IMG/VR virus record: IMGVR_UViG_3300044819_000016
Coordinates: 1-64,000 of that record
Origin: a virus
DNA: 64,000 nucleotides
Direction: 5' to 3' (one strand)
Position 1 is the stretch's first letter. Every line of letters begins with the position of its first letter. Positions 6,515 to 63,366 of the stretch are shown one piece after another. Both the position numbers and the translations under genes were made by a program. The notes under the pieces are model-generated. The model was not told where the DNA came from. It was given only the letters and a program-made list of their open reading frames with translations, and ran no database searches.

Positions 6515-7008
6515 GCGATCTGCTGCTCTTTGGGCTCCGGATGGGCGAGGAGACAGACCGCGCGTTCATCTACGACTCGTGGCTTCGCTCCTACGAGTTC
6601 CAGGTCGGGGACATCGCCGCCGACGCGAAGACCTGCAAGACGTGTGGGCGCACCCGTCGGCGTGACGTGTCCGGGGGCCACGCCAATTCAGAGATCGCAT
6701 CCCGCGACTACTGGTCATTCCAGCGCGGCAGGATCAACAGGCTCCTCGACACGACGGCGGCGGTCATCGTCGCCTATCCCGAGGGGACGCCGTCGGTGAT
6801 CGCTGGCTGGGCGTGCGTGGACAACGATCCCGAGGTCGTCCACTACGTCTACGTGCGCGAGTTCTACCGGCAGAAGGGGATCGCCAGGCGCCTGATCGAA
6901 GGTCGCAAGATTTGCACGCATTTAACCGACAGCCGGCGCCCGGATAGCGCCACGGCGTGGAAGCGGAGGATGGGGATGCGGTATCTGCCGTACCTGTTTG
7001 ATTTATGA
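6511..7008 (+). CDS. GNAT-family acetyltransferase
   Basis: VHYVYVREFYRQKGIARRL matches acetyl-CoA binding motif A (R/Q-x-x-G-x-A). Confidence 0.75.
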   Translation: MSDLLLFGLRMGEETDRAFIYDSWLRSYEFQVGDIAADAKTCKTCGRTRRRDVSGGHANSEIASRDYWSFQRGRINRLLDTTAAVIVAYPEGTPSVIAGWACVDNDPEVVHYVYVREFYRQKGIARRLIEGRKICTHLTDSRRPDSATAWKRRMGMRYLPYLFDL

Positions 7009-7141
7009 CTGTCTGGTACGCGCAGCCGAAGGGGATCATCGAGATGCGCCGGATCGGCTGGCTGTTCGTACTGGCCTATTCGTTCGATGAAGAGCCCGAT
7101 GTCCTGTTGAGTTGGGCCGAAAAATGGAGAAGGAGCTGGAC

Positions 7142-7336
7142 ATGGCAAACGGACGAAAGACCGAACTGAAAATGCCGGTGGGCGAGAACTGGGACAGCAA
7201 ATCAGCGGGCGTCAGGGACCAGATCGTGAGCAAGCTCAGCAAGTCGAAACTCGACAAGGAACTGGCGGCGCTGAACGAAGAGTTGAAGGGCGCGAGGCTG
7301 AGGAAGGTCCTGAAGCGCCTGGAGAAGAAGAAATGA
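7142..7336 (+). CDS. Small basic coiled-coil protein
   Basis: RBS AAGGAG. Confidence 0.6.
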   Translation: MANGRKTELKMPVGENWDSKSAGVRDQIVSKLSKSKLDKELAALNEELKGARLRKVLKRLEKKK

Positions 7337-7481
7337 AGTACGTACTGGCCATACCCCTCATCTACTTCGGCATTTGGTTCATCGGCGACTGCGCGATCGT
7401 TTCCTGGTACGAGGGGAAAATCTTTCTTCGAAGCATCCGGTTCCATGCCACGGTGGCCATGAATTACCTGCGAGGTTTGAA

Positions 7482-7805
7482 ATGGAAGTTAACAAGTACC
7501 TGCGCGACTGTCCGTACTCCAAGGTGGACGTCTACCGCGTCCTGGAGATTTTCCAGGTCACGAGCCCGGCGATCCAGCACGCCGTCAAAAAGCTTCTCTG
7601 CACCGGCATCCGCGGCGGCAAGGACTTCGACCAGGACCTGGAAGAGGCCATCCAGGCGCTGACCAGGCTCCAGGGGATGCGCAAGGAGGACGTCGACCGC
7701 GCGATTTTCGAACGTCAACAGCCGCCGTCCGCTCGCTCTGATCCGTCACCCGCTCAGATAGCCGAATTGCAGTATCGGACCACCGCGCTCATCAACACCA
7801 AGTGA
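7482..7805 (+). CDS. Conserved small phage protein
   Basis: VDVYRVL..F.VT.PA.QHAVKKLLC.G.RG.KD..QDL.EAI pattern, recognised as a common phage family. Confidence 0.7.
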   Translation: MEVNKYLRDCPYSKVDVYRVLEIFQVTSPAIQHAVKKLLCTGIRGGKDFDQDLEEAIQALTRLQGMRKEDVDRAIFERQQPPSARSDPSPAQIAELQYRTTALINTK

Positions 7806-9478
7806 TCGCTCTCCCGTCCATCCCGCCGACCACCGCCGCCGGCATCGCGACGCTGATGGCGCAGACGCGCGTGGTCTCGCGCGCCTCTGCCGTGAAGCAG
7901 ACGGTGACGCTGGCCCAAATCGCCGATGGACACGGGCCCCAACTTGAGCTGATGGAGCGGTGCGCAGAGCTTGCCGAGGATGGCACGTTCAAGCACCGCA
8001 ACGTCATCGCCATCGCCTCCCGTCGCGCCGCCAAGTCGACATCGATCTGCGGAATCCTGGCGACCGACGGCTCACAGTACGACGGCGTCCAAATCTACTT
8101 CGGCAAGAACAAACCGGCTGTTCGCCTCAGCATCTGGACGAAGGTCTGGAAGCCGTTCCTCCGGAAGCACTTCGGCCCCCCGGGCGGCAACTACAGCCTG
8201 AACGAAACGTCGATGGTGACGACGTTCCTGTCGGGCGGCATCGTGGCGTTCACGGGAACTGACGACGTCTCACACATCGAGAACTACCTCGGTAACAAGC
8301 TGCGCCGGGCCATCCTCGACGAGGTCCAGAGCCAGCCGTCTCGCGTCCTGAATCCCCTGATCGACCGCATCCTTCCGCCCGCTCTTTCGGATGTCGGCGG
8401 TCAGATGATCCTGGCCGGCACGATCCCCGATGTCCCTGCCGGCGAGTTCTACGAAATCTGGATGACGGGCGAGGGCTGGCTCAAGCGGAATTGGAGCCGC
8501 TTCGAGAACCCGCACCTCGGGACCGTCGAGCACCAGATGAAGGAACTGGGCATGTACCTCCGGGCCTCCAAGCGCAAGATCGACGACCCCCTTGTCCAGC
8601 GCGACTGGTTCGGGAAATTCGTCTTCGATTCGAGCGCGACCGCCTATCAGTATGATCCCTCGAAGAACGCCTATCTGCCGGTCGAGCCGCCGTGGTTCGA
8701 CGAGTGGCTTCGCCAGTTCGAGGGCGATCTTGCCTTCCCGAATATCCACCGGACGATCGAGCCCGACGACGGGACCGCGCGGCACGGCATCATGGCGGCC
8801 ACGCCGCTCCCCGGGATCGAGGTCTTCGCCTGCGCCATTGACCCGGGCGCCGGTGACAGGTTCTCGGTTGTCGTCACCGGCTGGGGAACAGGGACTCAGT
8901 CAGTCCAACAGGTGTTCGAGTTCTCGGGCCCGCGGAATGCGAACTTCTCGTGGTCGATGATCGATCCCATCCGCCGGGCGATCCAGGCCCACTACGCGCC
9001 GTCCTGGTGGTTCTATGACGCCGGTGGCTCGAAGGTCGTCCTCGACACGTTCGTTGGGGATACCCAACTCCCGGCCCTCCAGCCGGCGAAGAAGGCTACC
9101 GCCGTCCGGCACCAGGTGGCCCGCGTCTCGGACATCGCCCGGAAGGGCTGGCTCCAGATCATGAGCGGATCGGCGCTGGAGGAGGACCTCCAAAAGTGCC
9201 GATGGGACCCGGGCGCCCGCGCCAAGATGGAATGGAAGATGTCCACGACCTGGCACCCCGATCCGGCCGACAGCTTCAGGTACACCCTGGAGGCGTACTT
9301 CGACATCTACGACGCGCCCGAGAAGGAGAAGACCGACGAGGAGCGCGACCGCGAGAAGCACGACAAGGACGTGCGGCGCGCGTCCGCCCGGCGGATGGCC
9401 AACATGCTCCCCGAGGACGCCGACGAGATGTACGCCCGCCAGGACGAAGCCGAGGGAGATGGAAGTGGGCAATGGTAG
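7802..9478 (+). CDS. terL: Terminase large subunit
   Basis: Walker A-like ASRRAAKS, Walker B AILDEVQ, coupling motif LAGT, nuclease AIDPG...HPDPADSFRY; upstream of the portal. Confidence 0.9.
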   Translation: MIALPSIPPTTAAGIATLMAQTRVVSRASAVKQTVTLAQIADGHGPQLELMERCAELAEDGTFKHRNVIAIASRRAAKSTSICGILATDGSQYDGVQIYFGKNKPAVRLSIWTKVWKPFLRKHFGPPGGNYSLNETSMVTTFLSGGIVAFTGTDDVSHIENYLGNKLRRAILDEVQSQPSRVLNPLIDRILPPALSDVGGQMILAGTIPDVPAGEFYEIWMTGEGWLKRNWSRFENPHLGTVEHQMKELGMYLRASKRKIDDPLVQRDWFGKFVFDSSATAYQYDPSKNAYLPVEPPWFDEWLRQFEGDLAFPNIHRTIEPDDGTARHGIMAATPLPGIEVFACAIDPGAGDRFSVVVTGWGTGTQSVQQVFEFSGPRNANFSWSMIDPIRRAIQAHYAPSWWFYDAGGSKVVLDTFVGDTQLPALQPAKKATAVRHQVARVSDIARKGWLQIMSGSALEEDLQKCRWDPGARAKMEWKMSTTWHPDPADSFRYTLEAYFDIYDAPEKEKTDEERDREKHDKDVRRASARRMANMLPEDADEMYARQDEAEGDGSGQW

Positions 9479-9663
9479 GGATCCTCGGGATGCTCCCCGG
9501 GTACCGCGCGGTGCCATGGGGGGCGCCGGCCAGCCAGATGTCGGGGACCATCGTGATCGGGTGGCTCCGTTGGCGCTGGAAGACGAAGCGGTGCCTCCGT
9601 CGGGGCGTGGCATGCCACGGGATTACGCGGGCGGTTGATCGCCTCGTCGGCAAGGAGTGATCC

Positions 9664-9684
9664 AATCGGTCTGGCCCAGGTATG
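9664..9684 (+). promoter_or_regulatory. Putative late promoter, leaderless (copy 1)
   Basis: AATC-GGTC-TGGCC-CAGGT-ATG(9682). Confidence 0.7.
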
Positions 9685-9903
9685 GATTCGAAACGGCTGA
9701 AGCCGATCCTGAAGGCCCTGCGGGAGGCAAACGTCGCGAAGTTCACGCTTGGCGACATGATCATCGAGTTTCAGCCACCGATCCCGCCTGAATTCGTCGT
9801 TTCCGGTGAGGAGACCACCCCGAACCAGGACATGATCCTGCCGGACGGGATGTTCGACCCCCGGGCCAAGCTCGCTGAAATCAACCGCAAGGTCAGCCAG
9901 TGA
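9682..9903 (+). CDS. Small pre-portal protein
   Basis: Starts at the motif-defined ATG; GTGA-coupled to the portal. Confidence 0.75.
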   Translation: MDSKRLKPILKALREANVAKFTLGDMIIEFQPPIPPEFVVSGEETTPNQDMILPDGMFDPRAKLAEINRKVSQ

Positions 9904-12035
9904 GCAAGGTGACCAAGACGGCTCGGGGCTCCAAGCCGATTGGTCTTGGCCAGTCGAACGAGATCAAGACCTTCGACTTCTCGGGCGACGCCCTCAACCA
10001 GGGCCCGGGCCCGCGCCGCTGGTGGGACATCGACGAGATGTCAGGTGGCCTCGGGAGCGCCCCGAGCGGTTCGAACAAGACCGACCAGGACTCGGTCGAG
10101 AATTCGATGGCCGCCGCCATGGTGAACGCCGCCCGGTTCATCGAGAAGAGTCCCAGCGAACAGCTGCGCTACGACCTGAACCTGCTGTACGGCTCGCTCT
10201 ACGAGGGGCGCGAGCTTACGAACCTCTACCAGTACGGGGGCCAGTCGATGGTCACCGGCGGCGGCGCGAACGTGGGGCCTGGAGCCGTCGGCCAGATCAC
10301 CTGGAACGTGATCCGCTCTGTCGTGCAGACGGTGGCCTCCCAGGTATCGCGCAGCCGCCCGCGCGCCCGGTTCATTACCAGCGGCGGCTCGGGCAAGCAG
10401 AAGCGCCGGGCCAAGAAGCTGACGACGTTCTGCGATGGGCTTTTCACGGAGGCTCGGGTCTACGAGAAGACCCAGCAGGCGTTCATCTGCGCCGGGGCCT
10501 TCGACATCGCCGGGATCCAGGTCTTCCGCGAGCACGACCGGGTCGCCGTCGAGCTGGTCCGAGCCGCCGAGATCATGATCGGCGCGAACGACGGCATCGA
10601 CGCCAAGCCACGGGCCATGTACCGGCGCAAGTTCGTGGACCGCGGCGTCCTGATCAACAAGTTCGCGAAGGGGAAGGCAAACGAGGAGCGGCGCAACGCG
10701 ATCATGTCGGCGCACAAGGCCGACCCTGTCGGTGACCAGTCAGGCTCCAACCTGGTCGAGGTCTACGAGGCGTGGCACTTGCCAAGCGGACCGGACGCGA
10801 ACGACGGGTGGCACATCATGGCCATCGACGCCTCGGCGACCGGAAGCGGCGGCCGGCTGATGGTCGAGCCGTACAAGAAGAAGTACTTCCCGATCATCCT
10901 GTTCTGCTTGGATCCGGCGCTCTCGGGCCCCTACGGTGTCTCTGCCGCCGCGACGTTGCTCCCGATCCAGCTTGCGGTGAACGTGGCGCTCGACCGCATC
11001 GCACGGGCCCAGCACCTGGCCTGCCGCCCCGGCGTCTGGGTCCCTCTCGCATCGAAGGTCGCGAAGGGGCAGATCACAAGCGCGGTCGGCGCGGTGAACT
11101 ACTACGCCGGGCAGACGCCGCCGACGTTCTACACGCCCCAGGCGATGAGCCCCGAGGTCTACCAGCAGCTGGAGCGTCATTTCGAAAAGGCGTTCTCCCT
11201 GTACGGCGTGAACACCTCGGTGGCCTCCGGAACCAAGGAGGCTGGAACCACGTCAGCCGTCGCCATTCGCGAGTCCCTCGACGTGCAGACGGCGCGCTTT
11301 GCGGTGCTCTCCCAGCGGTGGGAACAGCTTCACCTCGACATCGCCAAGCTTGCGATCGACGTGGCGCGCGACATCTACCTCGACAACAAGGAGATGATGG
11401 TCTCGGCGCCTGGGACGGCTCTCCTCGAATCGATCGACTGGAAGGACGTCAACCTCGAAGAGGACGAGTACGTGATCCAGGCGTACCCGACCTCGCTCTT
11501 GCCGACGACCCCCCAGGGGCGAATCGACCGCGTCAACGAGCTGGTGACCTCGGGAATCTGGAGCCCGAAGCGCGGCGAGGCGGCGCTCGACGATCTCGAC
11601 ATCGAGACGGCAATGTCGGCCGACCGCGCGGCCGAGAAGAACGCCGAGCGGATGTGTGAGGCGATGCTCTACGACGGCGAGTATGAGGGGCCCGACCCGA
11701 CGAACGATCTGGTGGCCTGCCTGAAGATCGGGAGCCAGTACCTGGACGAGGGGCGCGGCGACAAGACGACCCCGCCGAAGAACCTCGACCTGCTCTACCG
11801 CTTTCTGGACGACGTGGCTGCACTGCAAGCGGCTCTCAATGCACCGCCGCCGGCCCCGGGCGCTCCTGCCCCCGGTGGACCTCCCCCGGGTCCTGGCGGC
11901 CCTCCTGGTGCGCCGCCGCCGATGCCACACCCTGCGCCCCCCCCGGGGTCACCACCCGGGCCTCCTCCCGCTCCGCCACCGGGGCCACCGGGGCCCCCGC
12001 CGCCCCCGCCGGCAGCCGCGCCGCCCCCGGCCTGA
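9900..12035 (+). CDS. Portal protein (podovirus type) with polyproline tail
   Basis: Size and position after TerL; NVIRSVVQTVASQV..SRPR..F.T.G and VEVYEAWHLPS patterns. Confidence 0.85.
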   Translation: MSKVTKTARGSKPIGLGQSNEIKTFDFSGDALNQGPGPRRWWDIDEMSGGLGSAPSGSNKTDQDSVENSMAAAMVNAARFIEKSPSEQLRYDLNLLYGSLYEGRELTNLYQYGGQSMVTGGGANVGPGAVGQITWNVIRSVVQTVASQVSRSRPRARFITSGGSGKQKRRAKKLTTFCDGLFTEARVYEKTQQAFICAGAFDIAGIQVFREHDRVAVELVRAAEIMIGANDGIDAKPRAMYRRKFVDRGVLINKFAKGKANEERRNAIMSAHKADPVGDQSGSNLVEVYEAWHLPSGPDANDGWHIMAIDASATGSGGRLMVEPYKKKYFPIILFCLDPALSGPYGVSAAATLLPIQLAVNVALDRIARAQHLACRPGVWVPLASKVAKGQITSAVGAVNYYAGQTPPTFYTPQAMSPEVYQQLERHFEKAFSLYGVNTSVASGTKEAGTTSAVAIRESLDVQTARFAVLSQRWEQLHLDIAKLAIDVARDIYLDNKEMMVSAPGTALLESIDWKDVNLEEDEYVIQAYPTSLLPTTPQGRIDRVNELVTSGIWSPKRGEAALDDLDIETAMSADRAAEKNAERMCEAMLYDGEYEGPDPTNDLVACLKIGSQYLDEGRGDKTTPPKNLDLLYRFLDDVAALQAALNAPPPAPGAPAPGGPPPGPGGPPGAPPPMPHPAPPPGSPPGPPPAPPPGPPGPPPPPPAAAPPPA

Positions 12036-12052
12036 TCGAACTGGCCCCGGTA
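12034..12052 (+). promoter_or_regulatory. Putative late promoter (copy 2), no ATG at +1
   Basis: GATC-GAAC-TGGCC-CCGGT-A. Confidence 0.6.
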
Positions 12053-12163
12053 GCACCGGCGCCAATCCTCGGTGTCTTGGCCATGGCGGGGCGCCCCGAC
12101 TCAGGGTCGGTGCGACGGGGTAGGTTTAGGGCCCGATCGGACGTCTCCCCGATCGGGCCTTTG
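12052..12163 (+). ncRNA. Putative ~110-nt small RNA
   Basis: Bounded by motif copy 2 and a terminator-like hairpin; stems GCACCGG/TCGGTGC and CGCCA/TGGCG. Confidence 0.45.
12129..12163 (+). terminator. Rho-independent terminator-like hairpin
   Basis: GGGCCCGATCGG-N8-CCGATCGGGCCT followed by TT. Confidence 0.6.
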
Positions 12164-12176
12164 ATCTGTCCGTTGC

Positions 12177-12197
12177 GATCGGGCTGGCCCCGGTATG
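12177..12197 (+). promoter_or_regulatory. Putative late promoter, leaderless (copy 3)
   Basis: GATC-GGGC-TGGCC-CCGGT-ATG(12195). Confidence 0.75.
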
Positions 12198-12503
12198 GCC
12201 AACCCACAAAATCAGCCCACACCGGCCGCGCCCGAATCGGCGCCGGCCAAAGTCCCCCTCACCCTCGAAGCCCTCATGGAGCGCATCGAGCGCGCCGAGG
12301 CCGAGAACGCCGCCCTCAAGGAGAAACTCGAAGCCGTCCCGAGCGGCCTTCCCCTGACGCCTGAGCAGATCGCCGCCCTCCAGGCTGACGCCTTGGCGGC
12401 CGGTCTCCCCGGCAACCAGGTCCGCCCGACCATGGGCCAACTCCATAAGGCCACTGGCAAGGAGATCTTCAACGGCTCTCGCCCCACCGGAAGGGCTGGC
12501 TGA
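12195..12503 (+). CDS. Hypothetical head-module protein
   Basis: Short coiled coil; leaderless start at the motif. Confidence 0.75.
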   Translation: MANPQNQPTPAAPESAPAKVPLTLEALMERIERAEAENAALKEKLEAVPSGLPLTPEQIAALQADALAAGLPGNQVRPTMGQLHKATGKEIFNGSRPTGRAG

Positions 12504-12506
12504 CCC

Positions 12507-12743
12507 ATGGCCGACGAGAGCGTCACGCCAGTCCCCGAGGTCATCCCGGTTGGTCCGGGCCGCAGCGACAACCCGGTGCAGTTCCCGGGCGGCTTGCAGC
12601 CGGTGCCCGCGCACGTCGAGGTCGATCCGCCCGTCGCCGACATCCCTCCGGCCTCTCCGCCGCCCGTGACGGTGCCGCCCGAGTCCGATCCTGAGCCGGC
12701 GCCGTTCTTCGACCGACAGTATCCGACAGGGGCGCCTCAGTGA
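12507..12743 (+). CDS. Pro-rich hypothetical protein
   Basis: Tightly packed; GTGA-coupled to the scaffold. Confidence 0.6.
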   Translation: MADESVTPVPEVIPVGPGRSDNPVQFPGGLQPVPAHVEVDPPVADIPPASPPPVTVPPESDPEPAPFFDRQYPTGAPQ

Positions 12744-13825
12744 GCGCCGCCGCTGGTGCAGCGGCAGTCCAGGCTCCGACCCCGGATGCCGGCGCCGTCC
12801 CCGACGTCGACGCAGCCGGCATCGAGTCAGGCGATGGGCCGTCCCTGGAAGACATGGCCGCGATTATGGACGAGTCTGGCGGCGAGACGCCGGCCGCGCC
12901 CGCTCCAGTCGCCCCTCCGGTTAAGGGACCGGCCACCCCCCCAGCCGTCGCCGCCGCGCCCAAGGCTCCCGAGGAGCTTCCCGGTGAGGAGCCGCCCGCG
13001 CCCGCGGTGGACGTGGCCAAGGAGGCCGACAAGCTCCGCAAGGGCTGGGCGGCGCTGGCTCGCGACAAGGAGCAACTCGTCGCGAAGGCCCAGCAGTTGA
13101 CGTCCGAGATCGAGCGCGTCAAGGCGTACGAGAACAAGGCGAAGTTCCTCGACACGCTGCCGGAGAAGATCGCCGCCAATCCCATCGCGTTCCTCGAAGC
13201 GAACGGGGTCAGCGTCGACGATCTCCTGAACCGCGTGATCGAGGCCGAGAAGTCCCCGGTCGAGCGCGAGATCGCCCAGCTCAGGGCCGAGCGCGAAGCC
13301 GAGAAGAAGCGCGCCGCCGATGAGCAGAAGAACGCCGCCGCGCGCGCCGAGCAGGAGAAGAACCAGCGGATCATCCAGGAATGGCAGCAGCGGAACACGT
13401 CGTTCGCGAGCACCAATCCCGACCGCTACGACATGATCGTGGCGCTTGAACAGGGCGAAGCCGTCCATCAGACGTGTCTCGCCTACCACGCGAAGCACGG
13501 CGTGATCCTCGACCCGGCGACCGCCGCCGACTACGTCGAGAAGGGTCTCCGCGCGGGGATTCAAAAATCCAAGTACCTCAAGGGTCTTCTGGCGTCGAGC
13601 CAGCCGAAGGCTCCTGTTCCCGCTCCAAAACCGGCTCAACCCAGCAGCACACCCAAAGTCGCCCCCAAGCAAACGGGCAGTACTGTCACGCTTTCGAGCG
13701 TGGCGACCGGAGACTCGGCGCCATCGGCGAACGATCTTCCGGCTGATTCCGATGCACGAATGGAAGCGGTCCTCCGCGAGATGCACGCTGCCGGCGAACT
13801 GCCGGATCAGTGGCGCGTCGGCTGA
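12740..13825 (+). CDS. Capsid scaffolding protein
   Basis: Acidic/Pro-rich N-terminus and long coiled coil; directly before the capsid gene. Confidence 0.8.
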   Translation: MSAAAGAAAVQAPTPDAGAVPDVDAAGIESGDGPSLEDMAAIMDESGGETPAAPAPVAPPVKGPATPPAVAAAPKAPEELPGEEPPAPAVDVAKEADKLRKGWAALARDKEQLVAKAQQLTSEIERVKAYENKAKFLDTLPEKIAANPIAFLEANGVSVDDLLNRVIEAEKSPVEREIAQLRAEREAEKKRAADEQKNAAARAEQEKNQRIIQEWQQRNTSFASTNPDRYDMIVALEQGEAVHQTCLAYHAKHGVILDPATAADYVEKGLRAGIQKSKYLKGLLASSQPKAPVPAPKPAQPSSTPKVAPKQTGSTVTLSSVATGDSAPSANDLPADSDARMEAVLREMHAAGELPDQWRVG

Positions 13826-13857
13826 ACCCTTCCACCTGACCCAAGGGGAAATCGACC

Positions 13858-15138
13858 ATGACTACCGGCGCAAATAGCACCACCGGCGTGAACTTTCTGA
13901 AGAAGTTCTACACGCCGAACTTCATCGTGAACACCGTCTCCGGGAAGGCTTCCCGCCTTTTCAATCTGATCACCCACAAGACCAACGGATCGGGGAAGGA
14001 CTACAACTTCCTGTCCGTGGTCGGCGACAACCCCTCGGGTTCGGCCGTCATGTCGAACAGCCAGAGCACCGGCACCGCGAGCATGCAGCAGGGCGTCCAG
14101 TTCGTGGTCCCGTGGTTCAACGACTACGAGACCCCGACCGTCGCTGGCGACTTGATCGCCAAGACCCGTAACGACCAGGGAGGTTGGCTCCCGGCCCTCA
14201 AGGCCGAAATGGATTCCTCGCTCCGGTACGCCGGGCACCGGAAGTCCATCGCCCTCTTCACCTCGGGTTGGGGCGAGTTGGGGCAGATCAGCGCCGCGCA
14301 GAACCTGACCCTCGCCGTCCTGACCCTGGCCGACCCGAGCGCGATCTACCGCTTCATTCCCGGGCAGCAGATCGTGTTCTCCGGAACGCTCAACTCCTCG
14401 CTGCTCCGCGGGAACGGCGACTTCCTGACGATCACCGGCGTGAACTACTCGACCGGCACGCTCCAGCTCTCTGCCGCGATCAACTCGATCGCAGCCGGCG
14501 CGGGTGGCGTGGTGGCCGTGTCGGACATCATTTTCATCAACGGCGACCGCCAGAACAGCGCCACTCCTTCTCTCCGTCGTCCGGTGGGCCTCGGCTCTCC
14601 TCTCGGTGGCGGGTGGGCTCCCATCGTCCAGCCGACCCCCGGTGAGTCGTTCTTCGGCCAGGATCGCACCCTGAACAGCTTCCTGACGAGCTTCTACATC
14701 GACGGGCGCTCTCAGCCCCTGCCGATGAGCTTCGTGCAGGCCGCGCAGACGACCTCCAGCATCGGCAACGCCGACACGCTGGTCGGTGTCTGCTCGCCGC
14801 GCCAGTTCTCGGTCCTCGCCAACTCGATGCAGGGACAGGTCCAGTACACCCAGATCACCGGCCGCGGTGGCGTGGCGTTCAAGACCATCATGGTCTACGC
14901 CGACGGCATCGAGCTGCCGGTCATCTCGGACAAGTACTGCGTGGACGGCGTCGCCTACGTGGGCGACCCGAAGACCCTCAAGCACACCTCGATCGGCGAG
15001 GCGCCGCACATCAACCACGACGACGGGCAGCAGATGGTCCGTCAGACCGGCGACGACGGCGTCGAGGTCCGCATCCGTTCCTTCGAGACGTTGACTCTCG
15101 AAGGCGCGGCTTCCTGGGCCACCATCCAGCTGGCCTAA
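13858..15138 (+). CDS. Major capsid protein
   Basis: 426 aa; follows the scaffold; strongly biased codons; purine-rich RBS; followed by a strong hairpin. Confidence 0.85.
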   Translation: MTTGANSTTGVNFLKKFYTPNFIVNTVSGKASRLFNLITHKTNGSGKDYNFLSVVGDNPSGSAVMSNSQSTGTASMQQGVQFVVPWFNDYETPTVAGDLIAKTRNDQGGWLPALKAEMDSSLRYAGHRKSIALFTSGWGELGQISAAQNLTLAVLTLADPSAIYRFIPGQQIVFSGTLNSSLLRGNGDFLTITGVNYSTGTLQLSAAINSIAAGAGGVVAVSDIIFINGDRQNSATPSLRRPVGLGSPLGGGWAPIVQPTPGESFFGQDRTLNSFLTSFYIDGRSQPLPMSFVQAAQTTSSIGNADTLVGVCSPRQFSVLANSMQGQVQYTQITGRGGVAFKTIMVYADGIELPVISDKYCVDGVAYVGDPKTLKHTSIGEAPHINHDDGQQMVRQTGDDGVEVRIRSFETLTLEGAASWATIQLA

Positions 15139-15140
15139 CC

Positions 15141-15194
15141 GGCTGACCTGACGGCGAGGGCTTGAGCAATCGAGCCCTCGCCTGACGGTCAACC
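15141..15194 (+). terminator. Extended hairpin after the capsid gene (stabiliser/attenuator)
   Basis: GGCGAGGGCTTGA-GCAA-TCGAGCCCTCGCC plus TGAC/TGAC internal loop and basal GGCTGACC/GGTCAACC; no U-tract. Confidence 0.55.
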
Positions 15195-15231
15195 ATCCTC
15201 GAAATCGCCTCTCTGAAAGAAGGATCTTCAC

Positions 15232-15663
15232 ATGGCCGATCTTCCCAAGTACAAGCCCGACGGCGTCACGCAGACTCGCGTGTCTCGCCTCACCGGGTGG
15301 CTCGCAATCGGAGCGACCGGGGCCATTACGGGCCAGTCCGGCGTCTCCACCTCGACCTCCGGTGGTCAACTGTGCGGCGTCACCTGGAGCCGCAATGCCA
15401 CCGGCGACTACCGCGCAACGCTCCACCGCGGCTACAAGCGGGCCATCCGTGGCGACGCCCAGATCATCGGGCCGACCATCGGAACCGCTCCCACGGGCTG
15501 CGTCGACGCAAGCCTGATCATCCCGCCCGGCTGCTTCATCGGCTCGACCCCGGTGGCGGCGACCGGACAGGTCGGGATCACGACCATGTCCGCCGCGGGG
15601 GCCCTCGCTGACCCACAGAGCGGATCCATCGTCAGCTACGACATCGAACTGGCGGACATCTAA
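15232..15663 (+). CDS. Probable capsid decoration/cement protein
   Basis: G/T/A-rich beta protein immediately after the capsid gene; RBS AAGGA. Confidence 0.6.
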   Translation: MADLPKYKPDGVTQTRVSRLTGWLAIGATGAITGQSGVSTSTSGGQLCGVTWSRNATGDYRATLHRGYKRAIRGDAQIIGPTIGTAPTGCVDASLIIPPGCFIGSTPVAATGQVGITTMSAAGALADPQSGSIVSYDIELADI

Positions 15664-15666
15664 GCC

Positions 15667-15993
15667 ATGGGCATGGACAGCAAAAAGCTCGCGCTCGTGA
15701 TCGCGGGCGGCATGCCGCCGCCTAACAGGCTGAGGCCAGGTGGGAGCATGAAGTTCGGCGAGGACGGTGGCGGAGACGATCCCGGCTCCGACGATGCGAC
15801 CGAGTCACCGCAGGAGGACCAGGACGAGTCCGAGAGCGGCGAGACCGGCGGCGGGAAAGCGGCTCTCAAGGCTGCCTTCGACGCCATGAAGACCGGCGAC
15901 ATGAGTGCGGCGTGGGATTCGTTCTGCGACGCCATCGACATCGCCAAGAACCGCTCGAAGCCGAGCGGCAACGAAAAGGGCGGCCCGTACTGA
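15667..15993 (+). CDS. Acidic hypothetical protein
   Basis: Tight packing; ends before a terminator. Confidence 0.7.
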   Translation: MGMDSKKLALVIAGGMPPPNRLRPGGSMKFGEDGGGDDPGSDDATESPQEDQDESESGETGGGKAALKAAFDAMKTGDMSAAWDSFCDAIDIAKNRSKPSGNEKGGPY

Positions 15994-16003
15994 TTGACCT
16001 TGC

Positions 16004-16039
16004 CCGCTCTCCTGGCTGACCCCGGGAGAGCGGCTTTTT
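16004..16039 (+). terminator. Rho-independent terminator
   Basis: CCGCTCTCCTGG-N6-CCGGGAGAGCGG-C-TTTTT. Confidence 0.85.
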
Positions 16040-16054
16040 ACGTTCGGAGGCACC

Positions 16055-16711
16055 TTGACAGTCACCCTGGCTCAGATTCGCGGACAGGCCCAGGACATCT
16101 GCGACTTCGTGAACAACCCGCAGGTAGGGACCCCGACCTGGACCCAGTGGACGAACGACGGCATCGAGAAGCTGTACCGCATCGTCATCAAGCTCTCGAC
16201 CGGCGCATTCGAGACGTCGGCTGACGTGACCCTCTCCTCCGCGACGAACCTGATTCCGAAGCCTGCTGGGTTTCGACGTCTCCTCGGCTTGACCCTGGAT
16301 CCGACGTCCCCGGGCATGCGCCGCAGCCTTCCGAAATACAACAAGGGGAACCGCGACGCCTACGGGACGCTCGGCCCCCGCCGATACCGCGTCCTCGGCG
16401 ACTCGATCTCCGTCGAGCCCTTCCAGCTCGCCGCCGGCAACTACCGGATCTATTACGTCGCCGGCCCGAACAAACTCGTCGCCGACAGCGACACCATGGA
16501 TCCCGTCCTCGCCGACTACGTTGACTACGTCGTGACCTGGATGTGCATCAAGGCGCTCGGCAAGGAAGAGAGCGACAATCGCGATCTGTACGTCGAGCTT
16601 GCGAAGATCGAACAGGACGTGATGGAAGCCTTCGCGATGATCGACGGCGACGATTCCGACACCATCGTCGATGACGACGACCGCGGGCCAAGCGTCTGGA
16701 CTGTGCCGTAG
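16055..16711 (+). CDS. Head-tail adaptor
   Basis: RBS GGAGG; N-terminal TL..IR..A....D pattern, YRIYY and C-terminal helices typical of podovirus adaptors. Confidence 0.7.
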   Translation: MTVTLAQIRGQAQDICDFVNNPQVGTPTWTQWTNDGIEKLYRIVIKLSTGAFETSADVTLSSATNLIPKPAGFRRLLGLTLDPTSPGMRRSLPKYNKGNRDAYGTLGPRRYRVLGDSISVEPFQLAAGNYRIYYVAGPNKLVADSDTMDPVLADYVDYVVTWMCIKALGKEESDNRDLYVELAKIEQDVMEAFAMIDGDDSDTIVDDDDRGPSVWTVP

Positions 16712-16774
16712 CATTTTTCCATTTGTCCGCTATCGTCATCGCCCAGTACGAAGGCGCCGCGGTCCCGTAGTCCC

Positions 16775-16795
16775 GATCCCCTTGGCCAGGGTATG
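16775..16795 (+). promoter_or_regulatory. Putative late promoter (copy 4)
   Basis: GATC-CCCT-TGGCC-AGGGT-ATG(16793). Confidence 0.7.
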
Positions 16796-16819
16796 GCCAG
16801 CATCGGGGCTCGCGCGTAA

Positions 16820-18037
16820 ATGGCTCGCAAGGGCATCTACAACCGCGTCCAGGTCCCAAACGACTCCGATCTGTCGCGAGTCCAGGACGCGATCGCGAAA
16901 GCCTTCAGCCAGCTCTCCGTCGACGACGATCTGGTCAAGGCCCCGATCACCCCGGTCGCTTCGACCGCGAAGCTGGCCAACGGCAGCACGATCATCGTGT
17001 TCACCGGGAACACGGCTCAGATCATCACGCTCCCGCTCGCCAACTCACAGGGACAGGGCGTCGGGCAGGTCGCAATCTTCTCGAACGAGTCGGCGGCCAC
17101 CACGACCCTCGCCGCGCCGGGCAGCAACACGATCAACGGGGCCACGACCCTCGGGGTAGCCCCAGGGACCACGGTCCTCGCCACGAGCGACGGGCGCTCG
17201 AAGTGGCTCGCCATCTCTGGCCCGGGCGGCACGGGCGGCGGCGTCGGCCCGACCGGACCACAGGGCAACCAGGGCCCTCCGGGGTTCGGCCAGGACGCCG
17301 ACGAGCCCGAGGGCCCTTGGCTGGTGCCTGGGCGAACCGGGAACACCGGGGCTACAGGGAACACCGGACCACAGGGCAACCAGGGCCCTCCGGGGTTCGG
17401 CCAGGACGCCGACGAGCCCGAGGGCCCTTGGCTGGTGCCTGGGCGAACCGGGAACACCGGACCACAGGGCAACCAGGGCCCTCCGGGGTTCGGCCAGGAC
17501 GCCGACGATCCCGAGTTCCCCATGATGATCCCGGGTCCCCAGGGGCTTGTGGGCCCGACCGGCCCCTCCGGCCCCATCGGACTCCAGGGGTTCGGCCTCC
17601 CGGGCCAGGACGGCGAGGACGGGGCGGACGCCATTCCGATCCCCGGGACGCCCGGCGCCCCCGGCCTGATGGGCCCCGCAGGGCCCCAGGGAGCGCAAGG
17701 GACGCCCGCGCAGGACCCGGACGACCCAGAGGCCCCAATGTTCATCCCCGGGCCTCCTGGCGCAAATGGCGCGCCCGGGGCCATCGGCCAGACCGGCCTC
17801 GGGGTCTACATCCCCTCCCCCGACCCGGACGAGCCCGAGGCCCCTTGGCCGGTTCCCGGGCCCATCGGGGCGGTTGGGCCGGTTGGGCCGGTTGGCCCCA
17901 TCGGCGGCCCTGGCCTGCCTGCCGCCGATCCTGACGAGCCCGAGATGCCTTGGCTGGTCCCAGGCCCCCAGGGCCCGGGCGGCGGCGGCACCGTGACCAT
18001 CGACCAGGTCAAGATGATCGTGGGTCTCCGCGGGTGA
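16820..18037 (+). CDS. Collagen-like fibre protein
   Basis: Gly-X-Y triplets interrupted by D/E-P-E-x-P-W/M-x-V/I-P-G motifs. Confidence 0.85.
   Translation: MARKGIYNRVQVPNDSDLSRVQDAIAKAFSQLSVDDDLVKAPITPVASTAKLANGSTIIVFTGNTAQIITLPLANSQGQGVGQVAIFSNESAATTTLAAPGSNTINGATTLGVAPGTTVLATSDGRSKWLAISGPGGTGGGVGPTGPQGNQGPPGFGQDADEPEGPWLVPGRTGNTGATGNTGPQGNQGPPGFGQDADEPEGPWLVPGRTGNTGPQGNQGPPGFGQDADDPEFPMMIPGPQGLVGPTGPSGPIGLQGFGLPGQDGEDGADAIPIPGTPGAPGLMGPAGPQGAQGTPAQDPDDPEAPMFIPGPPGANGAPGAIGQTGLGVYIPSPDPDEPEAPWPVPGPIGAVGPVGPVGPIGGPGLPAADPDEPEMPWLVPGPQGPGGGGTVTIDQVKMIVGLRG
17252..17507 (+). repeat. ~98-nt direct repeat, twice plus a partial third copy, inside the collagen gene
   Basis: ACCGGACCACAGGGCAACCAGGGCCCTCCGGGGTTCGGCCAGGACGCCGACGA at 17252, 17363 and 17456. 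Confidence 0.9.
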
Positions 18038-21478: not shown

Positions 21479-21691
21479 ATGGACCCCACTGTCACGATCC
21501 CAATCACCGAGTATGAGACCCTGATCGCCATCGTCTCGCGCCTGCGCTCCCTCCGGAAGCTTGGGCTAAAACACCGCTTCAACGCCGAGGGCAATCCTGA
21601 GTCGTATCCCGACACCGAAACCACCCCCCTCCAGCACGCCCAGGTGAACCTCGATCAGGTCATCGAGGCGGCCATGAGAGCCGGGTTCTGA
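21479..21691 (+). CDS. Hypothetical protein
   Basis: RBS AGGAG. Confidence 0.6.
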   Translation: MDPTVTIPITEYETLIAIVSRLRSLRKLGLKHRFNAEGNPESYPDTETTPLQHAQVNLDQVIEAAMRAGF

Positions 21692-21710
21692 TCGGTCTGG
21701 CCAGGACATG
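21690..21710 (+). promoter_or_regulatory. Putative late promoter (copy 5)
   Basis: GATC-GGTC-TGGCC-AGGAC-ATG(21708). Confidence 0.7.
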
Positions 21711-25592: not shown

Positions 25593-25613
25593 GATCGGGC
25601 TGGCCACGGTATG
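25593..25613 (+). promoter_or_regulatory. Putative late promoter, leaderless (copy 6)
   Basis: GATC-GGGC-TGGCC-ACGGT-ATG(25611). Confidence 0.75.
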
Positions 25614-42285: not shown

Positions 42286-42676
42286 CGTTTCCGGTGAGCA
42301 CCAGTCCATCGGGCCAGCGACCCGTACCAAGCTGAGCCTGGCCCAGTTCGTCACGATCGTCGGCGCCGTCGTCGCCATGACCGCGACTGCCCTGGCGACG
42401 TTCTACGCCCTGCGGGCCCGCGACGATCTCCAGGACGCGAAGCAGGGCGCCCTCGAAGGGGCGTTCGCCCGGCACCTTGCCGATCTGAACGCCCACATGC
42501 CCGAGAACTTCCAGCGGGCCCACGGCGAGCCGGTCGGTTCCTTCGACTTCCGCGTGACGATCGACCGGCTGGAGAAGAACCTCGAAGAGATCCAGAAGCG
42601 CCCATTCGTGCTCGACGGCGACACCTGCCGCCCGGTCCACGGCGGCACTCTCTGTCAGCAGAAGTACCCGCCATGA
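42269..42676 (+). CDS. Single-TM coiled-coil protein (i-spanin/antiholin candidate)
   Basis: TM FVTIVGAVVAMTATALATFYAL; two C-terminal Cys; RBS GGAG. Confidence 0.6.
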   Translation: MPTEGDVSGEHQSIGPATRTKLSLAQFVTIVGAVVAMTATALATFYALRARDDLQDAKQGALEGAFARHLADLNAHMPENFQRAHGEPVGSFDFRVTIDRLEKNLEEIQKRPFVLDGDTCRPVHGGTLCQQKYPP

Positions 42677-43362
42677 TCCTGTCGGCGGCCGAGCAGAAGA
42701 AGCTCGTTGCCGCCCATCTGAAGCTGGCCCAGGCCGCCGCCGCCAAGGCCCGCGCCACGATGCCCGACACGGTCGAGCTTGCTGATCTGATCCAGGAGGC
42801 GACGATCGGTCTGATTGGAGCCGCCAGGCGGTTCGACCCAGCCAAGGGCGAGGACTTCGCCTCCTACGCCTACTCGCGCTGTCTCGGCGCCGCGAAGGAC
42901 TACGTCCGGAGCCTCGATCCTATCTCGCGTGACGCGCGCCGCTACCAGCGCAAGATCAGGTCAACGGCTCACGCCCTCGAACTGGAGCCCGAGGGCGTGA
43001 GCCAGGAGGCCATCGCCGCGCGCATGGGCGTGAGCCTGGAGCGTTTCCATGCCATGGTCCTGTGGGGGGCGCCCGGCGGCTCCTCCATCGGCCTGGATGA
43101 GCCTGGCGTCATCCCGTTGATGCGCTCGAAGGATCCATCCCCCGAGGACCAGGTCGAGCGGTCACAACTCCTGGAGCGACTGGCCGGCGCCATCTCCAGG
43201 CTTCCCCATCGTCTCCAGGTAATCACCCTAGCGTGGCTCGACGGCTGGCTGATGGCGGATATCGGCGTGGCAATCGAGCGCACCGAGTCGCGCGTCTGCC
43301 AGCTACTGCAAACCGCGGTCGAGATGATCCGAGACGACATCGGGCCAACTTCGAATGGATGA
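42673..43362 (+). CDS. RNA polymerase sigma factor, FliA/WhiG-like
   Basis: DLIQEATIGLIGAARRFDP.KG..FASYA..R..GA..DYVRSLD..SR..R; region-4 HTH IGVAIERTESRVCQL. Confidence 0.9.
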   Translation: MILSAAEQKKLVAAHLKLAQAAAAKARATMPDTVELADLIQEATIGLIGAARRFDPAKGEDFASYAYSRCLGAAKDYVRSLDPISRDARRYQRKIRSTAHALELEPEGVSQEAIAARMGVSLERFHAMVLWGAPGGSSIGLDEPGVIPLMRSKDPSPEDQVERSQLLERLAGAISRLPHRLQVITLAWLDGWLMADIGVAIERTESRVCQLLQTAVEMIRDDIGPTSNG

Positions 43363-63323: not shown

Positions 63324-63366
63324 GCCAGCTTGATCCACGAAGCGGTACTTCGTGGATCAAGCTGGC
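63324..63366. repeat. Perfect 19-bp inverted repeat with a 5-nt loop
   Basis: GCCAGCTTGATCCACGAAG-CGGTA-CTTCGTGGATCAAGCTGGC. Confidence 0.95.

Follow-up and report, generated by a model that had tools for sequence, protein, structure and literature searches.

A conserved, folded non-coding element with a terminator-like hairpin, flanked by head genes in an uncultured soil phage

Short terminated RNAs and leaderless late messages in phages

In phage lambda, the late promoter pR' and the terminator tR' give rise to the 6S leader, a short terminated transcript that lies directly upstream of the late genes, works with the Q antiterminator and heads the whole late operon. The element described here shares with this arrangement a late start signal (putative in our case), a short transcript that is predicted to terminate, and late genes that come next. 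It differs in lying inside the structural region and in being followed by another start motif, and Pfam scans of the predicted proteins gave no Q-like protein.

In virulent Pseudomonas phages, 29 ncRNA candidates derived from 5' untranslated regions have been reported to arise when transcription from a promoter stops prematurely ahead of the next gene, and one of them precedes the gene for the major head protein of YuA (PMC10914365). Like these candidates, as far as that report characterises them, our element is about 100-200 nt long, is bounded by a promoter and a terminator (both putative here), and lies upstream of a gene, in one of their cases a head gene. It also shares with them the terminator before the next gene, the lack of an open reading frame with a ribosome binding site, the sequence conservation among close relatives (80% identity in the two that carry it) and the lack of an assigned function. 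The Pseudomonas RNAs were detected by cappable-seq and northern blots, whereas the element here is known from its sequence alone. Unlike those RNAs as they are described, it has a second copy of the start motif after the terminator, and the core of the predicted RNA is an inverted copy of that motif. By analogy, the element looks like the promoter-proximal, terminated ncRNA candidates known from phages; because such RNAs of unassigned function are already known in cultured phages, it would be a modest addition to phage biology. The same report describes ncRNA1 and ncRNA2 of phage PAK_P3, which are late, abundant, derived from 3' untranslated regions and processed, with no transcription start of their own (PMC10914365). 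In that description they too lie between phage genes and end at a terminator, and they serve below as the model for a 3' untranslated origin of our element; so far as the report permits the comparison, they have no sequence relation to it.

For the Thermus phage Lalka27a, late promoters that give leaderless mRNAs were mapped experimentally, with the consensus TAGGGT and a start 6 nt downstream (preprint 10.64898/2026.04.20.719267). As in Lalka27a, where according to the preprint the first base of the start codon, A or G, is also the first base of the transcript, the genome studied here has many closely spaced phage-specific late motifs and late genes that are predicted to lack leaders. The motif differs from the one presented there: it is GATC-N3-YTGGCC-N4-6-ATG, adjoins the ATG, contains no TANNNT and was read from sequence.

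The portal-g102 junction and its predicted folds

The window analysed is a stretch of 64,000 nt (positions 1 to 64,000 of IMG/VR record IMGVR_UViG_3300044819_000016) from an uncultured soil phage. A gap of 160 bases between two of its head genes contains a folded non-coding element with a terminator-like hairpin at its end, and two related contigs, L005 and L006, carry the same element. The features of the locus are as follows.

9900-12035, + strand: probable portal gene, encoding 711 aa with a C-terminal tail rich in proline; J2 overlaps its stop codon TGA (12033-12035)
12034-12052, + strand: J2, a copy of the junction motif J (GATC-N3-CTGGCC-N5-A) lying on the portal TGA; GCACC comes next, so that it has no start codon
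12052-12165, + strand: predicted non-coding RNA of about 110-115 nt, made up of a 5' domain closed by helix P1, a linker, a terminator hairpin and a U run; proposed from J2, P1 and the hairpin
12053-12113, + strand: 5' domain, with P1 (12053-12060 with 12106-12113, 8 pairs) and P2 (12061-12064 with 12084-12087, 4 pairs)
12072-12105, + strand: invJ, a diverged inverted copy of J and a gene start, whose reverse complement aligns to the J copies
12094-12120, + strand: helix P4, 12094-12098 (or 12099) with 12116 (or 12115)-12120, interleaved with P1
12128-12163, + strand: hairpin T, GC-rich, 12-13 bp, with an 8-nt loop containing a conserved GUCUCC and then UUUG; terminator-like
12177-12197, + strand: J3, a copy of J adjoining the ATG of g102
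12195-12503, + strand: g102, 102 aa, coiled-coil-like, first gene of the head-morphogenesis unit

The portal label comes from weak PHROG matches (phrog_332, E = 7.2e-9; phrog_156, portal, E = 5.7e-5) and from the position of the gene after the large terminase gene at 7802-9478 (phrog_2, E = 4.5e-24). The protein is 85-88% identical in relatives; it has no Pfam match, and neither it nor the capsid protein has a match in a PDB sequence search. The head-morphogenesis unit comprises g102 (homologues in L005 and L006 59-64% identical), g78, g361, the capsid gene at 13858-15138, whose family includes PF17236 members and homologues at 74-86% identity, g143 and g108, and it ends at a terminator at 16004-16033. 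Strong hairpins are found 3' of the capsid gene (15153-15182) as well as of g108 (16004-16033).

A repeat finder returned J as a 19-nt direct repeat, with GATCGAACTGGCCCCGGTA at 12034-12052 and GATCGGGCTGGCCCCGGTA at 12177-12195. The two copies are 89% identical at a spacing of 143 nt, and the last base of the second is the A of the g102 start codon at 12195; the homologue of J3 in L005 and L006 is GATCGGGCTGGCCGGTTCATG. About 75 nt separate J2 from hairpin T. The original prediction, which proposed a late small RNA with its own promoter and terminator after the portal gene, had picked out most of these parts, and each was found in place: the motif copy that overlaps the portal stop without an ATG after it, the copy that restarts at the next gene, the hairpin of about 12 bp with a short U-tract (13 pairs at most, then TTTG), the GCACCGG/TCGGTGC stem, which lengthens to the 8 pairs of P1, and the CGCCA/TGGCG arm at 12060-12064 with 12084-12088.

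Hairpin T contains a perfect 11-nt inverted repeat (12130-12140 with 12149-12159), reaches its 13 pairs when G-U and A-U are counted, has 9 G-C pairs and is calculated at -25.6 kcal/mol, compared with -23.9 for the canonical terminator at 16004-16033. As a GC-rich stem-loop just 3' of a coding region it has the form of an intrinsic terminator. A consensus terminator scan (at least 5 T in 8) did report 16004-16033 and did not list hairpin T, because its T run is short. The run is UUUG in the window and UUUUCC in L005 and L006, and with only three or four U residues termination at this site may be partial. The ATG of g102 lies 34 nt past the end of the hairpin. Upstream of the hairpin, P1 recurs in the minimum-energy fold of each of the three sequences (window, L005 and L006), and in each it starts one base past the end of J2, at 12053. 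Since P1 and P4 are interleaved, they would form a pseudoknot or alternative conformers and cannot be drawn together in a nested fold. Folding energy was moderate for 12036-12194 (z = -2.72; 2 of 200 shuffles) and unremarkable for 12052-12163 (z = -1.67), where 14 of 200 shuffles fold as well. An extended hairpin base in the minimum-energy fold of 12036-12194, pairing 12111-12119 with 12169-12177, was rejected; two of its nine pairs are broken in L005 by the changes that compensate in P4.

Searches for known RNA families gave no match in the window at Rfam gathering scores. When 12000-12230 was searched at E <= 10, 19 rows were returned, none near its gathering score; the best were ar14 (25.8 bits, gathering 58.8) and Rhizobiales-2 (28, gathering 40), both driven by the hairpin. 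The row named 'pRNA' at this threshold is RF01518, the eukaryotic NoRC-associated RNA. ARAGORN returned no tRNA or tmRNA gene in the window.

Conservation, compensatory changes and distribution

The element is identical to that of L005 at 127 of 159 positions (80%), and the value for L006 is also 80%. Four-fold degenerate sites are identical at 53% in the portal gene, 50% in the terminase gene, 60-63% in g102 and 73% in the capsid gene. The original prediction was open to failure if conservation were confined to the terminator. Instead, the region 12053-12127, which holds the 5' domain, is about 80% identical to the relatives, as conserved as hairpin T, against 50-63% at the flanking four-fold sites. 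DNA-run contigs from three runs that span the element carry 12169 T>C as the only change within it among the best-supported changes listed, with 64 further changes outside that list; the flanking genes have about 2-3% changes.

The substitutions are distributed in a manner that points to base pairing. Across the 30 pairs of P1, P2, P4 and hairpin T, 25 are unchanged and five have changed on both sides so as to keep or gain pairing; one-sided changes and broken pairs were both zero. The 10 substitutions that fall in P1, P4 and hairpin T thus amount to five compensatory pairs. In P1, G12058>A occurs together with C12108>T and no pair is broken, and the four pairs of P2 are invariant. P4, a helix chosen after the substitutions had been seen, has the double changes C12096>T with G12118>A and A12099>G with A12115>C, the latter gaining a pair in L005 and L006. 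Hairpin T has two G-C/C-G flips relative to both relatives and no broken pair. When 27 substitutions were placed at random, four or more compensatory pairs arose in 7 of 20,000 placements and an absence of broken pairs in 10 of 20,000, while the two together were obtained in 0 of 20,000. In a MAFFT alignment (A5) evaluated for P1, P2 and P4 only, 98.1% of cells were paired, versus 28-44% when the partners were slid. Because this alignment and a second one (A3) put the hairpin arms of L005 and L006 one column out of register, hairpin T was counted from a separate pairwise alignment. Shuffling the alignment matched the observed covariation in 56 of 500 cases and the observed percentage of paired cells in 28 of 500, a control that is weak because only two independent lineages carry the element. 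For the covariation across relatives that the original prediction had called for, these two lineages give five compensatory pairs and none broken. On the opposite strand, two conserved G-U pairs would turn into A-C mismatches, which favours the + strand as the one that folds. Judged by these comparisons, selection maintains the interval as a structured non-coding element that is more than a terminator.

The element has a narrow distribution. A search with nhmmer over 23 related loci matched only L068, which is the L006 contig, and the element was absent from all 16 loci with a readable junction, four of them at 62-68% capsid identity and 12 more distant. All 16 have the same terminase-portal-capsid module. 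In these outgroups the portal stop is followed by J and then ATG without an insert, which indicates that the element is a recent, clade-specific addition. Pattern scans, with hits read or checked by nhmmer, returned 61 loci in viral contigs, of which two were real, and 26 in genome contigs, of which none was; further scans of viral contigs gave 2 real of 3 and 2 real of 43. The real matches were always the L005 and L006 contigs. Over the whole 83-kb record nhmmer found the element itself and no second copy. A capsid-based locus search of genome contigs yielded no relative, and thus no host can be named.

In both L005 and L006, accessory genes of about 1 kb lie between the portal gene and the element, upstream of J2, and the element follows the accessory-gene stop in the same TGATC context. 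We suggest that an insertion or duplication where the portal gene meets the head-gene unit gave rise to the element, within a single small subclade of SU10-capsid-type soil phages. The element would then show how duplication and inversion of a gene-start signal, at a hot spot where genes come and go, can give birth to a new RNA. A moron cassette was considered: the insertion does lie between genes that are adjacent in relatives, and no conserved open reading frame exists between J2 and hairpin T to serve as its protein-coding gene.

A putative late transcription unit and its alternatives

The 12-mer core of J, allowing up to two mismatches, has 17 matches in the window where shuffles give 7.3 +/- 2.4, and none of the 100 shuffled sequences reached 17. 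Copies at 9660, 12177, 16775, 21690 and 25593 each end on the ATG of a gene that has no Shine-Dalgarno sequence. Early genes have GGAGG-type sites. J copies are spaced by 2.5-5 kb, and for the one at 9660 there is no upstream gene that could provide coupling. Relative to L005, J2 has five substitutions (12038-12040, 12049 and 12051), all at positions that vary among J copies, with GATC and CTGGCC unchanged; in L006, the first 13 nt of J2 are common to another J of that genome. The phage encodes a FliA/WhiG-like sigma factor at 42673-43359. Taken together, the substitution pattern of J2, the phage sigma factor and the J starts without Shine-Dalgarno sequences fit a late promoter. In the outgroups, J is often a hairpin or palindrome of 5-7 bp adjoining the ATG, which could equally be a signal at the RNA level. 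A scan for sigma-70-type promoters over 7000-17000 found none, and J has no recognisable -10/-35 pair. A sigma-54 reading was rejected; its GG-N10-GC spacing fits J3 and not J2, and the outgroups have TGAC instead of TGGC.

The explanation that we tentatively prefer, plausible though short of probable, is that J2 drives a small late transcription unit whose product is an RNA of about 110 nt. J2 would be a late promoter, probably read by the host RNA polymerase with the phage sigma factor, and transcription would begin at 12052 or a few bases earlier and give a product without a start codon. The RNA would fold into the 5' domain closed by P1 one base past J2 and end at hairpin T, at a length of about 110-115 nt. 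Its role may be the control or insulation of the head-gene unit, either because the g102 start is sequestered in read-through RNA or because the RNA is an antisense regulator. The promoter activity of J, the ends of the RNA, termination at hairpin T and the function are all what we infer. The late ncRNA of the original prediction survives in part: the conserved, structured non-coding element with compensatory changes stands, with a J2 that evolves like the working J copies, and the role in packaging does not. One puzzle counts against a J2-driven unit, namely that J3 comes directly after it, so that the unit is not needed for g102 expression. RNA-run contigs from one metatranscriptome run that contains relatives fall at 12320-12460, 12800-12952 and 13163-13500, on g102 and g361. 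In the same run there is no RNA depth in the bin 12092-12175 on the element, and contigs cannot show RNA ends; the depth in 11924-12091 comes from contigs on the proline-rich repeat, whose listed pieces end at 12011 with a loose end at 12031. If the RNA is real, it is a conserved, structure-supported small RNA in an uncultured soil phage lineage. It would also be a test case for whether J on late starts lacking Shine-Dalgarno sequences is a promoter for the phage's own sigma factor, and for how the phage keeps its leaderless late messages separate from RNA that reads through.

The most serious alternative, which we regard as possible but rather unlikely, takes the interval up to hairpin T for the 3' untranslated region of the unit that precedes it (terminase, p73, portal and, in the relatives, accessory genes), with no start of its own. 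Hairpin T would terminate or stabilise the RNA, the 5' part would protect or process the 3' end, possibly freeing a small RNA in the manner of the late PAK_P3 ncRNAs as reported (PMC10914365), and J2 would be an ancestral leftover. Since the outgroups have J directly 3' of the portal stop, in the place of J2, J2 can indeed be the ancestral copy; the position of the element after the accessory-gene stop in L005 and L006 and the hairpins that follow the capsid gene and g108 agree with this origin too. It leaves unexplained, however, why J2 keeps the J consensus without an ATG, why P1 starts exactly after J2 and why conservation in the 75 nt 5' of the hairpin matches that of the hairpin itself, and the outgroups do without any terminator at this junction.

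The inverted motif copy bears on the possible function. Pairing of invJ (12072-12102) with J3 and the g102 start (12177-12207) gives a duplex of 25 pairs at -45.1 kcal/mol, compared with -34.9 +/- 3.7 for shuffles. Duplexes as good arose in 4 of 500 shuffles for the window, 18 of 500 for L005 and 47 of 500 for L006, and in the same register L005 has lost four of the 25 window pairs. Since the core of the element is an inverted J, the RNA, or a transcript that reads past hairpin T, could pair with J3 and the g102 start. This suggests an extended version of the preferred reading that we consider unlikely: the duplicated late start signal would drive an ncRNA whose core is antisense to that signal and to the neighbouring gene start, and this RNA or the read-through transcript would police translation of the head unit so that only leaderless RNAs started at J3 are allowed. 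To our knowledge, no riboregulator built for leaderless late genes has been described. In a scan of 75 gene starts for targets in trans, the 5' end of g102 (+1 to +30) was outside the best 8; at -30 to +20, J-bearing starts ranked second to fifth, merely because of the inverted J.

The same complementarity would be part of a cis-acting leader or attenuator, to which we give slightly less credence again. Here the P1 and P4 folds and the invJ:J3 pairing would form a switch, triggered by a protein or ligand, that acts on passage of hairpin T or on g102 translation. The order of structured domain, terminator hairpin and gene start 34 nt on is that of an attenuator, and the two interleaved helices both have compensatory changes. 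Yet the 25-pair complementarity is weaker in both relatives, no riboswitch or leader family of Rfam matched even at E <= 10, Pfam scans of 55 predicted proteins gave no antiterminator-like protein, and J3, if a promoter, bypasses the switch.

An improbable alternative places the feature at the level of DNA. The J2-invJ-J3 triplication would have arisen by template switching, and it would be kept, if at all, as a binding or methylation cluster, or with invJ as a leftward promoter. The order of J2, invJ and J3 does match a tandem inversion duplication, a J half-site, CGATCGGGCC, lies inside the arms of hairpin T, and a Dam family methylase is encoded at 1941-2555. The element has five GATC within 147 nt, whereas roughly 1% of 150-nt windows contain five or more; GATC is, however, 2.8-fold over-represented genome-wide, so that the cluster is not unique. 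If the interval were a neutral relic, it would have diverged like the synonymous sites (50-63% identity), and the observed identity is 80%. The compensatory changes from G-C to A-U and the flips point to base pairing and not to a fixed protein site. A reading of the GATC cluster as a P1-pac-like site was set aside; it is in the top 1% or so of windows, yet the whole genome is GATC-rich.

A small protein is very improbable: open frames do exist from GTG 12072 (30 aa) and ATG 12083 (93 aa, running off-frame into g102), but long ORFs out of frame occur often at 65% G+C, neither start has a Shine-Dalgarno sequence, indels of 1, 2 and 3 nt relative to L005 shift the frames, and the first 14 codons after ATG 12083 have four non-synonymous and two synonymous changes. 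Read-through of the portal TGA was considered and rejected; an in-frame TAG follows five codons on.

The role in packaging at the portal vertex that the original prediction had floated, on the model of the phi29 pRNA, is equally remote: the predicted RNA is likewise phage-encoded, structured and of roughly similar size, and its position beside the probable portal gene is the one point in favour, but no phage pRNA family matched at gathering score in the window or at E <= 10 in 12000-12230, phages with the same packaging module do not all keep the element, which is missing from the 16 relatives above, and in L005 and L006 it lies away from the portal gene, with about 1 kb of other genes in between.

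Composition of the post-portal element

The window forms the first 64 kb of a virus record of 83,041 bp (estimated completeness 76%), with almost every gene on the + strand. The genes of the head module, the copies of the 19-nt late-gene junction motif (J) that end on an ATG, and a phage sigma factor are located as follows.

Head-module genes, junction motifs and sigma factor (window coordinates)
7802-9478, large terminase (phrog_2, E = 4.5e-24)
9660-9684, J copy ending on ATG
9682-9903, 73-aa gene between terminase and portal
9900-12035, probable portal, 711 aa (phrog_332, E = 7e-9; phrog_156 'portal', E = 6e-5)
12177-12197, J copy ending on ATG (J3)
12195-12503, g102, followed by g78 and g361
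13858-15138, major capsid protein (SU10 capsid domain PF17236 present in some homologs)
16055-16708, SU10-type adaptor
16775-16795, J copy ending on ATG
21690-21710, J copy ending on ATG
25593-25613, J copy ending on ATG
42673-43359, phage sigma factor (Sigma70_r2 and r4 domains, phrog_351 match)

A Pfam search with eight head-module proteins gave no match, nor did a PDB sequence search with the portal and capsid proteins. The portal ends in a long proline/glycine-rich tail (11860-12032). Related contigs of public runs have in-frame deletions of 12 and 15 nt there, at 11963, and many unrelated contigs cross-matched this low-complexity stretch.

The original prediction placed a late small RNA with its own promoter and terminator directly after the portal gene, and all the sequence features from which it started are present. 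A repeat finder returned a 19-nt direct repeat (12034-12052, termed J2, and 12177-12195; 89% identity, 143 nt apart) and a perfect 11-nt inverted repeat (12130-12140 with 12149-12159). The portal TGA runs into J2, which is followed by GCACC and not by an ATG, and the last base of J3 is the A of the g102 start codon at 12195. The intervening terminator-like hairpin, T, can be extended to 13 pairs (-25.6 kcal/mol) and is followed by TTTG; because this T run is short, T was not among the terminators listed by a simple terminator scan. The 12-mer core of J matched 17 times with at most 2 mismatches, compared to 7.3 +/- 2.4 in shuffled sequences (at least 17 in 0/100 shuffles). Folding energy was unremarkable by itself (z = -1.67 for 12052-12163 and -2.72 for 12036-12194). 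A protein-coding reading of the element was rejected on account of indels and the substitution pattern.

Conservation and distribution among relatives

Two close relatives, L005 and L006, were identified among viral contigs by searching with the portal; their portal segments are 88% and 85% identical to the window, respectively (whole gene ~87%). In both, the interval between portal and g102 homolog contains extra genes (about 1.0 and 1.26 kb), and the element is retained as 160 nt immediately 5' of the g102 homolog (L005 6935-7095, L006 7194-7353). The element is identical to the window at 127/159 positions (80%), while identity at four-fold degenerate sites is 53% in the portal, 50% in the terminase, 60-63% in g102 and 73% in the capsid gene, which argues that the element is under purifying selection. 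Conservation is not confined to the hairpin, since the 75 nt 5' of it (12 substitutions, 3 gap positions) are conserved to the same degree. In the arrangement of the window, the element is also spanned by contigs of three public DNA runs; among the best-supported changes listed for them, one lies inside it (12169 T>C). The post-portal position is an accessory-gene hot spot, where L005 (6104-6934) and L006 (6089-7193) carry two extra genes each; the first differs, its start in L006 resembling a lipoprotein signal (MKKLLALMFLVACGG), and the second is common to both.

Capsid alignments led to more distant relatives, at 16 viral and 7 metagenome loci. An nhmmer search with the element over these 23 loci (L068-L090) matched only L068, which is the L006 contig. 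The portal/g102 junction could be read in 16 of the more distant loci, six others stopping short of it, and the element was absent from all 16. Four of these (L084, L085, L087 and L089; 62-68% capsid identity) pass from portal stop to motif to ATG with no insert, and in most of the 12 more distant junctions portal stop, motif and ATG fall within ~50 nt. A small additional ORF occupies this position in L075 and L082, and in L081 it is taken up by some 190 nt of unrelated non-coding sequence with several hairpins (2746-2925). Four pattern scans across viral and genome collections yielded no additional copy. This absence from distant relatives, together with the lack of further copies, indicates that the element is a recent addition within one small subclade, at a site of gene gain and loss.

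RNA structure and the inverted motif copy

We compared 30 pairs in four helices between the window and L005: P1 (12053-60/12106-13), P2 (12061-64/12084-87), P4 (12094-99/12115-20) and T (12129-40/12149-60). Twenty-five pairs are unchanged and the other five show two-sided changes that keep or create a pair (G58>A/C108>T; C96>T/G118>A; A99>G/A115>C; and two G-C/C-G flips in T), with no one-sided changes and no broken pairs. With the 27 substitutions scattered randomly across 156 ungapped columns, 4 or more compensatory pairs arose in 7 of 20,000 trials, zero broken pairs in 10 and both together in none, figures that derive from only two independent lineages and include P4, a helix noticed because of its substitutions. 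By tool count, 98.1% of cells in P1, P2 and P4 were paired, against 28-44% with partners slid, and the shuffle control of this count was weak (covariation 56/500, percent paired 28/500). Minimum-energy folds instead extend the hairpin base (12111-19/12169-77), and two of the nine pairs of this extension are lost in L005. Since the very changes that break this stem are compensated in P4, the comparison supports P4 more strongly than this extension. P1 interleaves with P4, and only 2 nt separate their 3' strands, so that the two would be alternative conformers or make up an unusual pseudoknot. The + strand is mildly favoured by two conserved G-U pairs, which on the opposite strand would become A-C mismatches.

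A diverged inverted copy of J, invJ, occupies the middle of the element (12072-12105). It is complementary to J3 together with the initial 13 nt of g102 (12177-12207), a match that the repeat finder gives as 81% over 21 nt. In the best duplex, 25 pairs yield -45.1 kcal/mol, compared to -34.9 +/- 3.7 for dinucleotide shuffles, of which 4/500 were as good (18/500 for L005 and 47/500 for L006). L005 has lost 4 of these pairs if the window's register is kept, although a shifted register gives it a duplex of 27 pairs. The reverse complement of invJ aligns to the J copies, including the TGA and ATGGCCAA at an identical 16-nt spacing. The parts thus follow one another as J2 (direct), invJ (inverted), hairpin, J3 (direct), as a tandem inversion duplication would leave them.

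The junction motif and the predicted late RNA

J has the form GATC-N3-YTGGCC-N4-6-ATG, often including the TGA of the preceding gene, and its copies are spaced 2.5-5 kb; a weaker copy lies at 12485-12509. The genes it serves lack a Shine-Dalgarno sequence, and the early and replication genes (53-80 kb) carry normally spaced GGAGG-type sites. Upstream of the copy at 9660 there is no gene to couple to, and the copy at 16775 precedes a mini-ORF of 8 codons (16793-16822, ATGGCCAGC...TAA) whose stop overlaps the next ATG (TAAATG), the start of a 405-aa collagen-repeat tail-fibre-like gene. A sigma-70-type promoter scan of 7-17 kb found none. In relatives, homologous J copies retain GATC and YTGGCC and vary elsewhere; all five substitutions between J2 and its L005 counterpart fall at J-variable positions, the first 13 nt of the L006 J2 are identical to another J of that genome, and the J copies of L075 and L082 contain the octamer GTCGTGAC. 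We lean towards J being a late promoter, probably that of an entire phage lineage, and the sigma factor at 42673-43359, whose best NCBIfam rows (FliA/WhiG) lie below their cut-offs, is a candidate for its reader. Many late promoters with leaderless transcripts are described on experimental grounds for Thermus phage Lalka27a, with a consensus that differs from J (10.64898/2026.04.20.719267). J contains no recognisable -10/-35 pair, and outgroup copies often consist of a hairpin or palindrome of 5-7 bp with covarying arms (e.g. CCCTGACCAGGG, CGCTCTGACCAGAGCG, TCGCCCTGACGAGGGCGA), a form that could be an RNA-level signal instead of a promoter. GATC, present in every junction motif, occurs 733 times in the record, 2.8-fold more often than expected (8.8 vs 3.2 per kb), and a Dam-family adenine methylase gene lies at 1941-2555.

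If J is a promoter, then J2 would initiate an RNA that lacks a start codon, enters its closing stem from the second base and ends at T, ~110 nt on. A small late RNA from J2 is our tentative best reading, and the element's RNA is plausibly a late transcript of its own. Such an RNA, here predicted from sequence, would be of the same kind as the 29 ncRNA candidates that a cappable-seq study of Pseudomonas phages describes as arising when transcription from a promoter ends prematurely, before it reaches the next gene; these are reported as conserved within genera and of unknown function, and one precedes the YuA major head gene (PMC10914365). In the one metatranscriptome run that contains relatives, contigs mapped to g102, g361 and further right and none on the element, although such contigs reveal neither ends nor absence. 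The main alternative, possible but doubtful, is that there is no separate start and that the stretch between J2 and the end of T is the 3' end of the upstream unit, which would parallel the processed late ncRNAs described for phage PAK_P3 (PMC10914365). A leader or attenuator switch appears unlikely, and a DNA-level relic or cluster of sites quite unlikely. What stands of the original prediction is an element that is conserved, structured and non-coding and includes a terminator-like hairpin; the packaging role it raised is very improbable, since the element matches no pRNA family, is missing from relatives with the same packaging module and in L005 and L006 does not even adjoin the portal gene.

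Further hairpins were observed elsewhere. Two strong ones belong to the head module: one of 13 pairs without a T run (15153-15182) lies directly 3' of the capsid gene, and a canonical terminator 3' of g108 (16004-16033) has a junction-motif-like core in its loop and is retained in L068 with a compensatory change. A perfect 19-bp hairpin occurs at 63324-63366, and past the end of the window a pair of near-identical hairpins of 11 bp (GGACTCCCGAG...; record 64605-64630 and 65864-65889), 1.26 kb apart, are each followed by TAGCGGGCCC.
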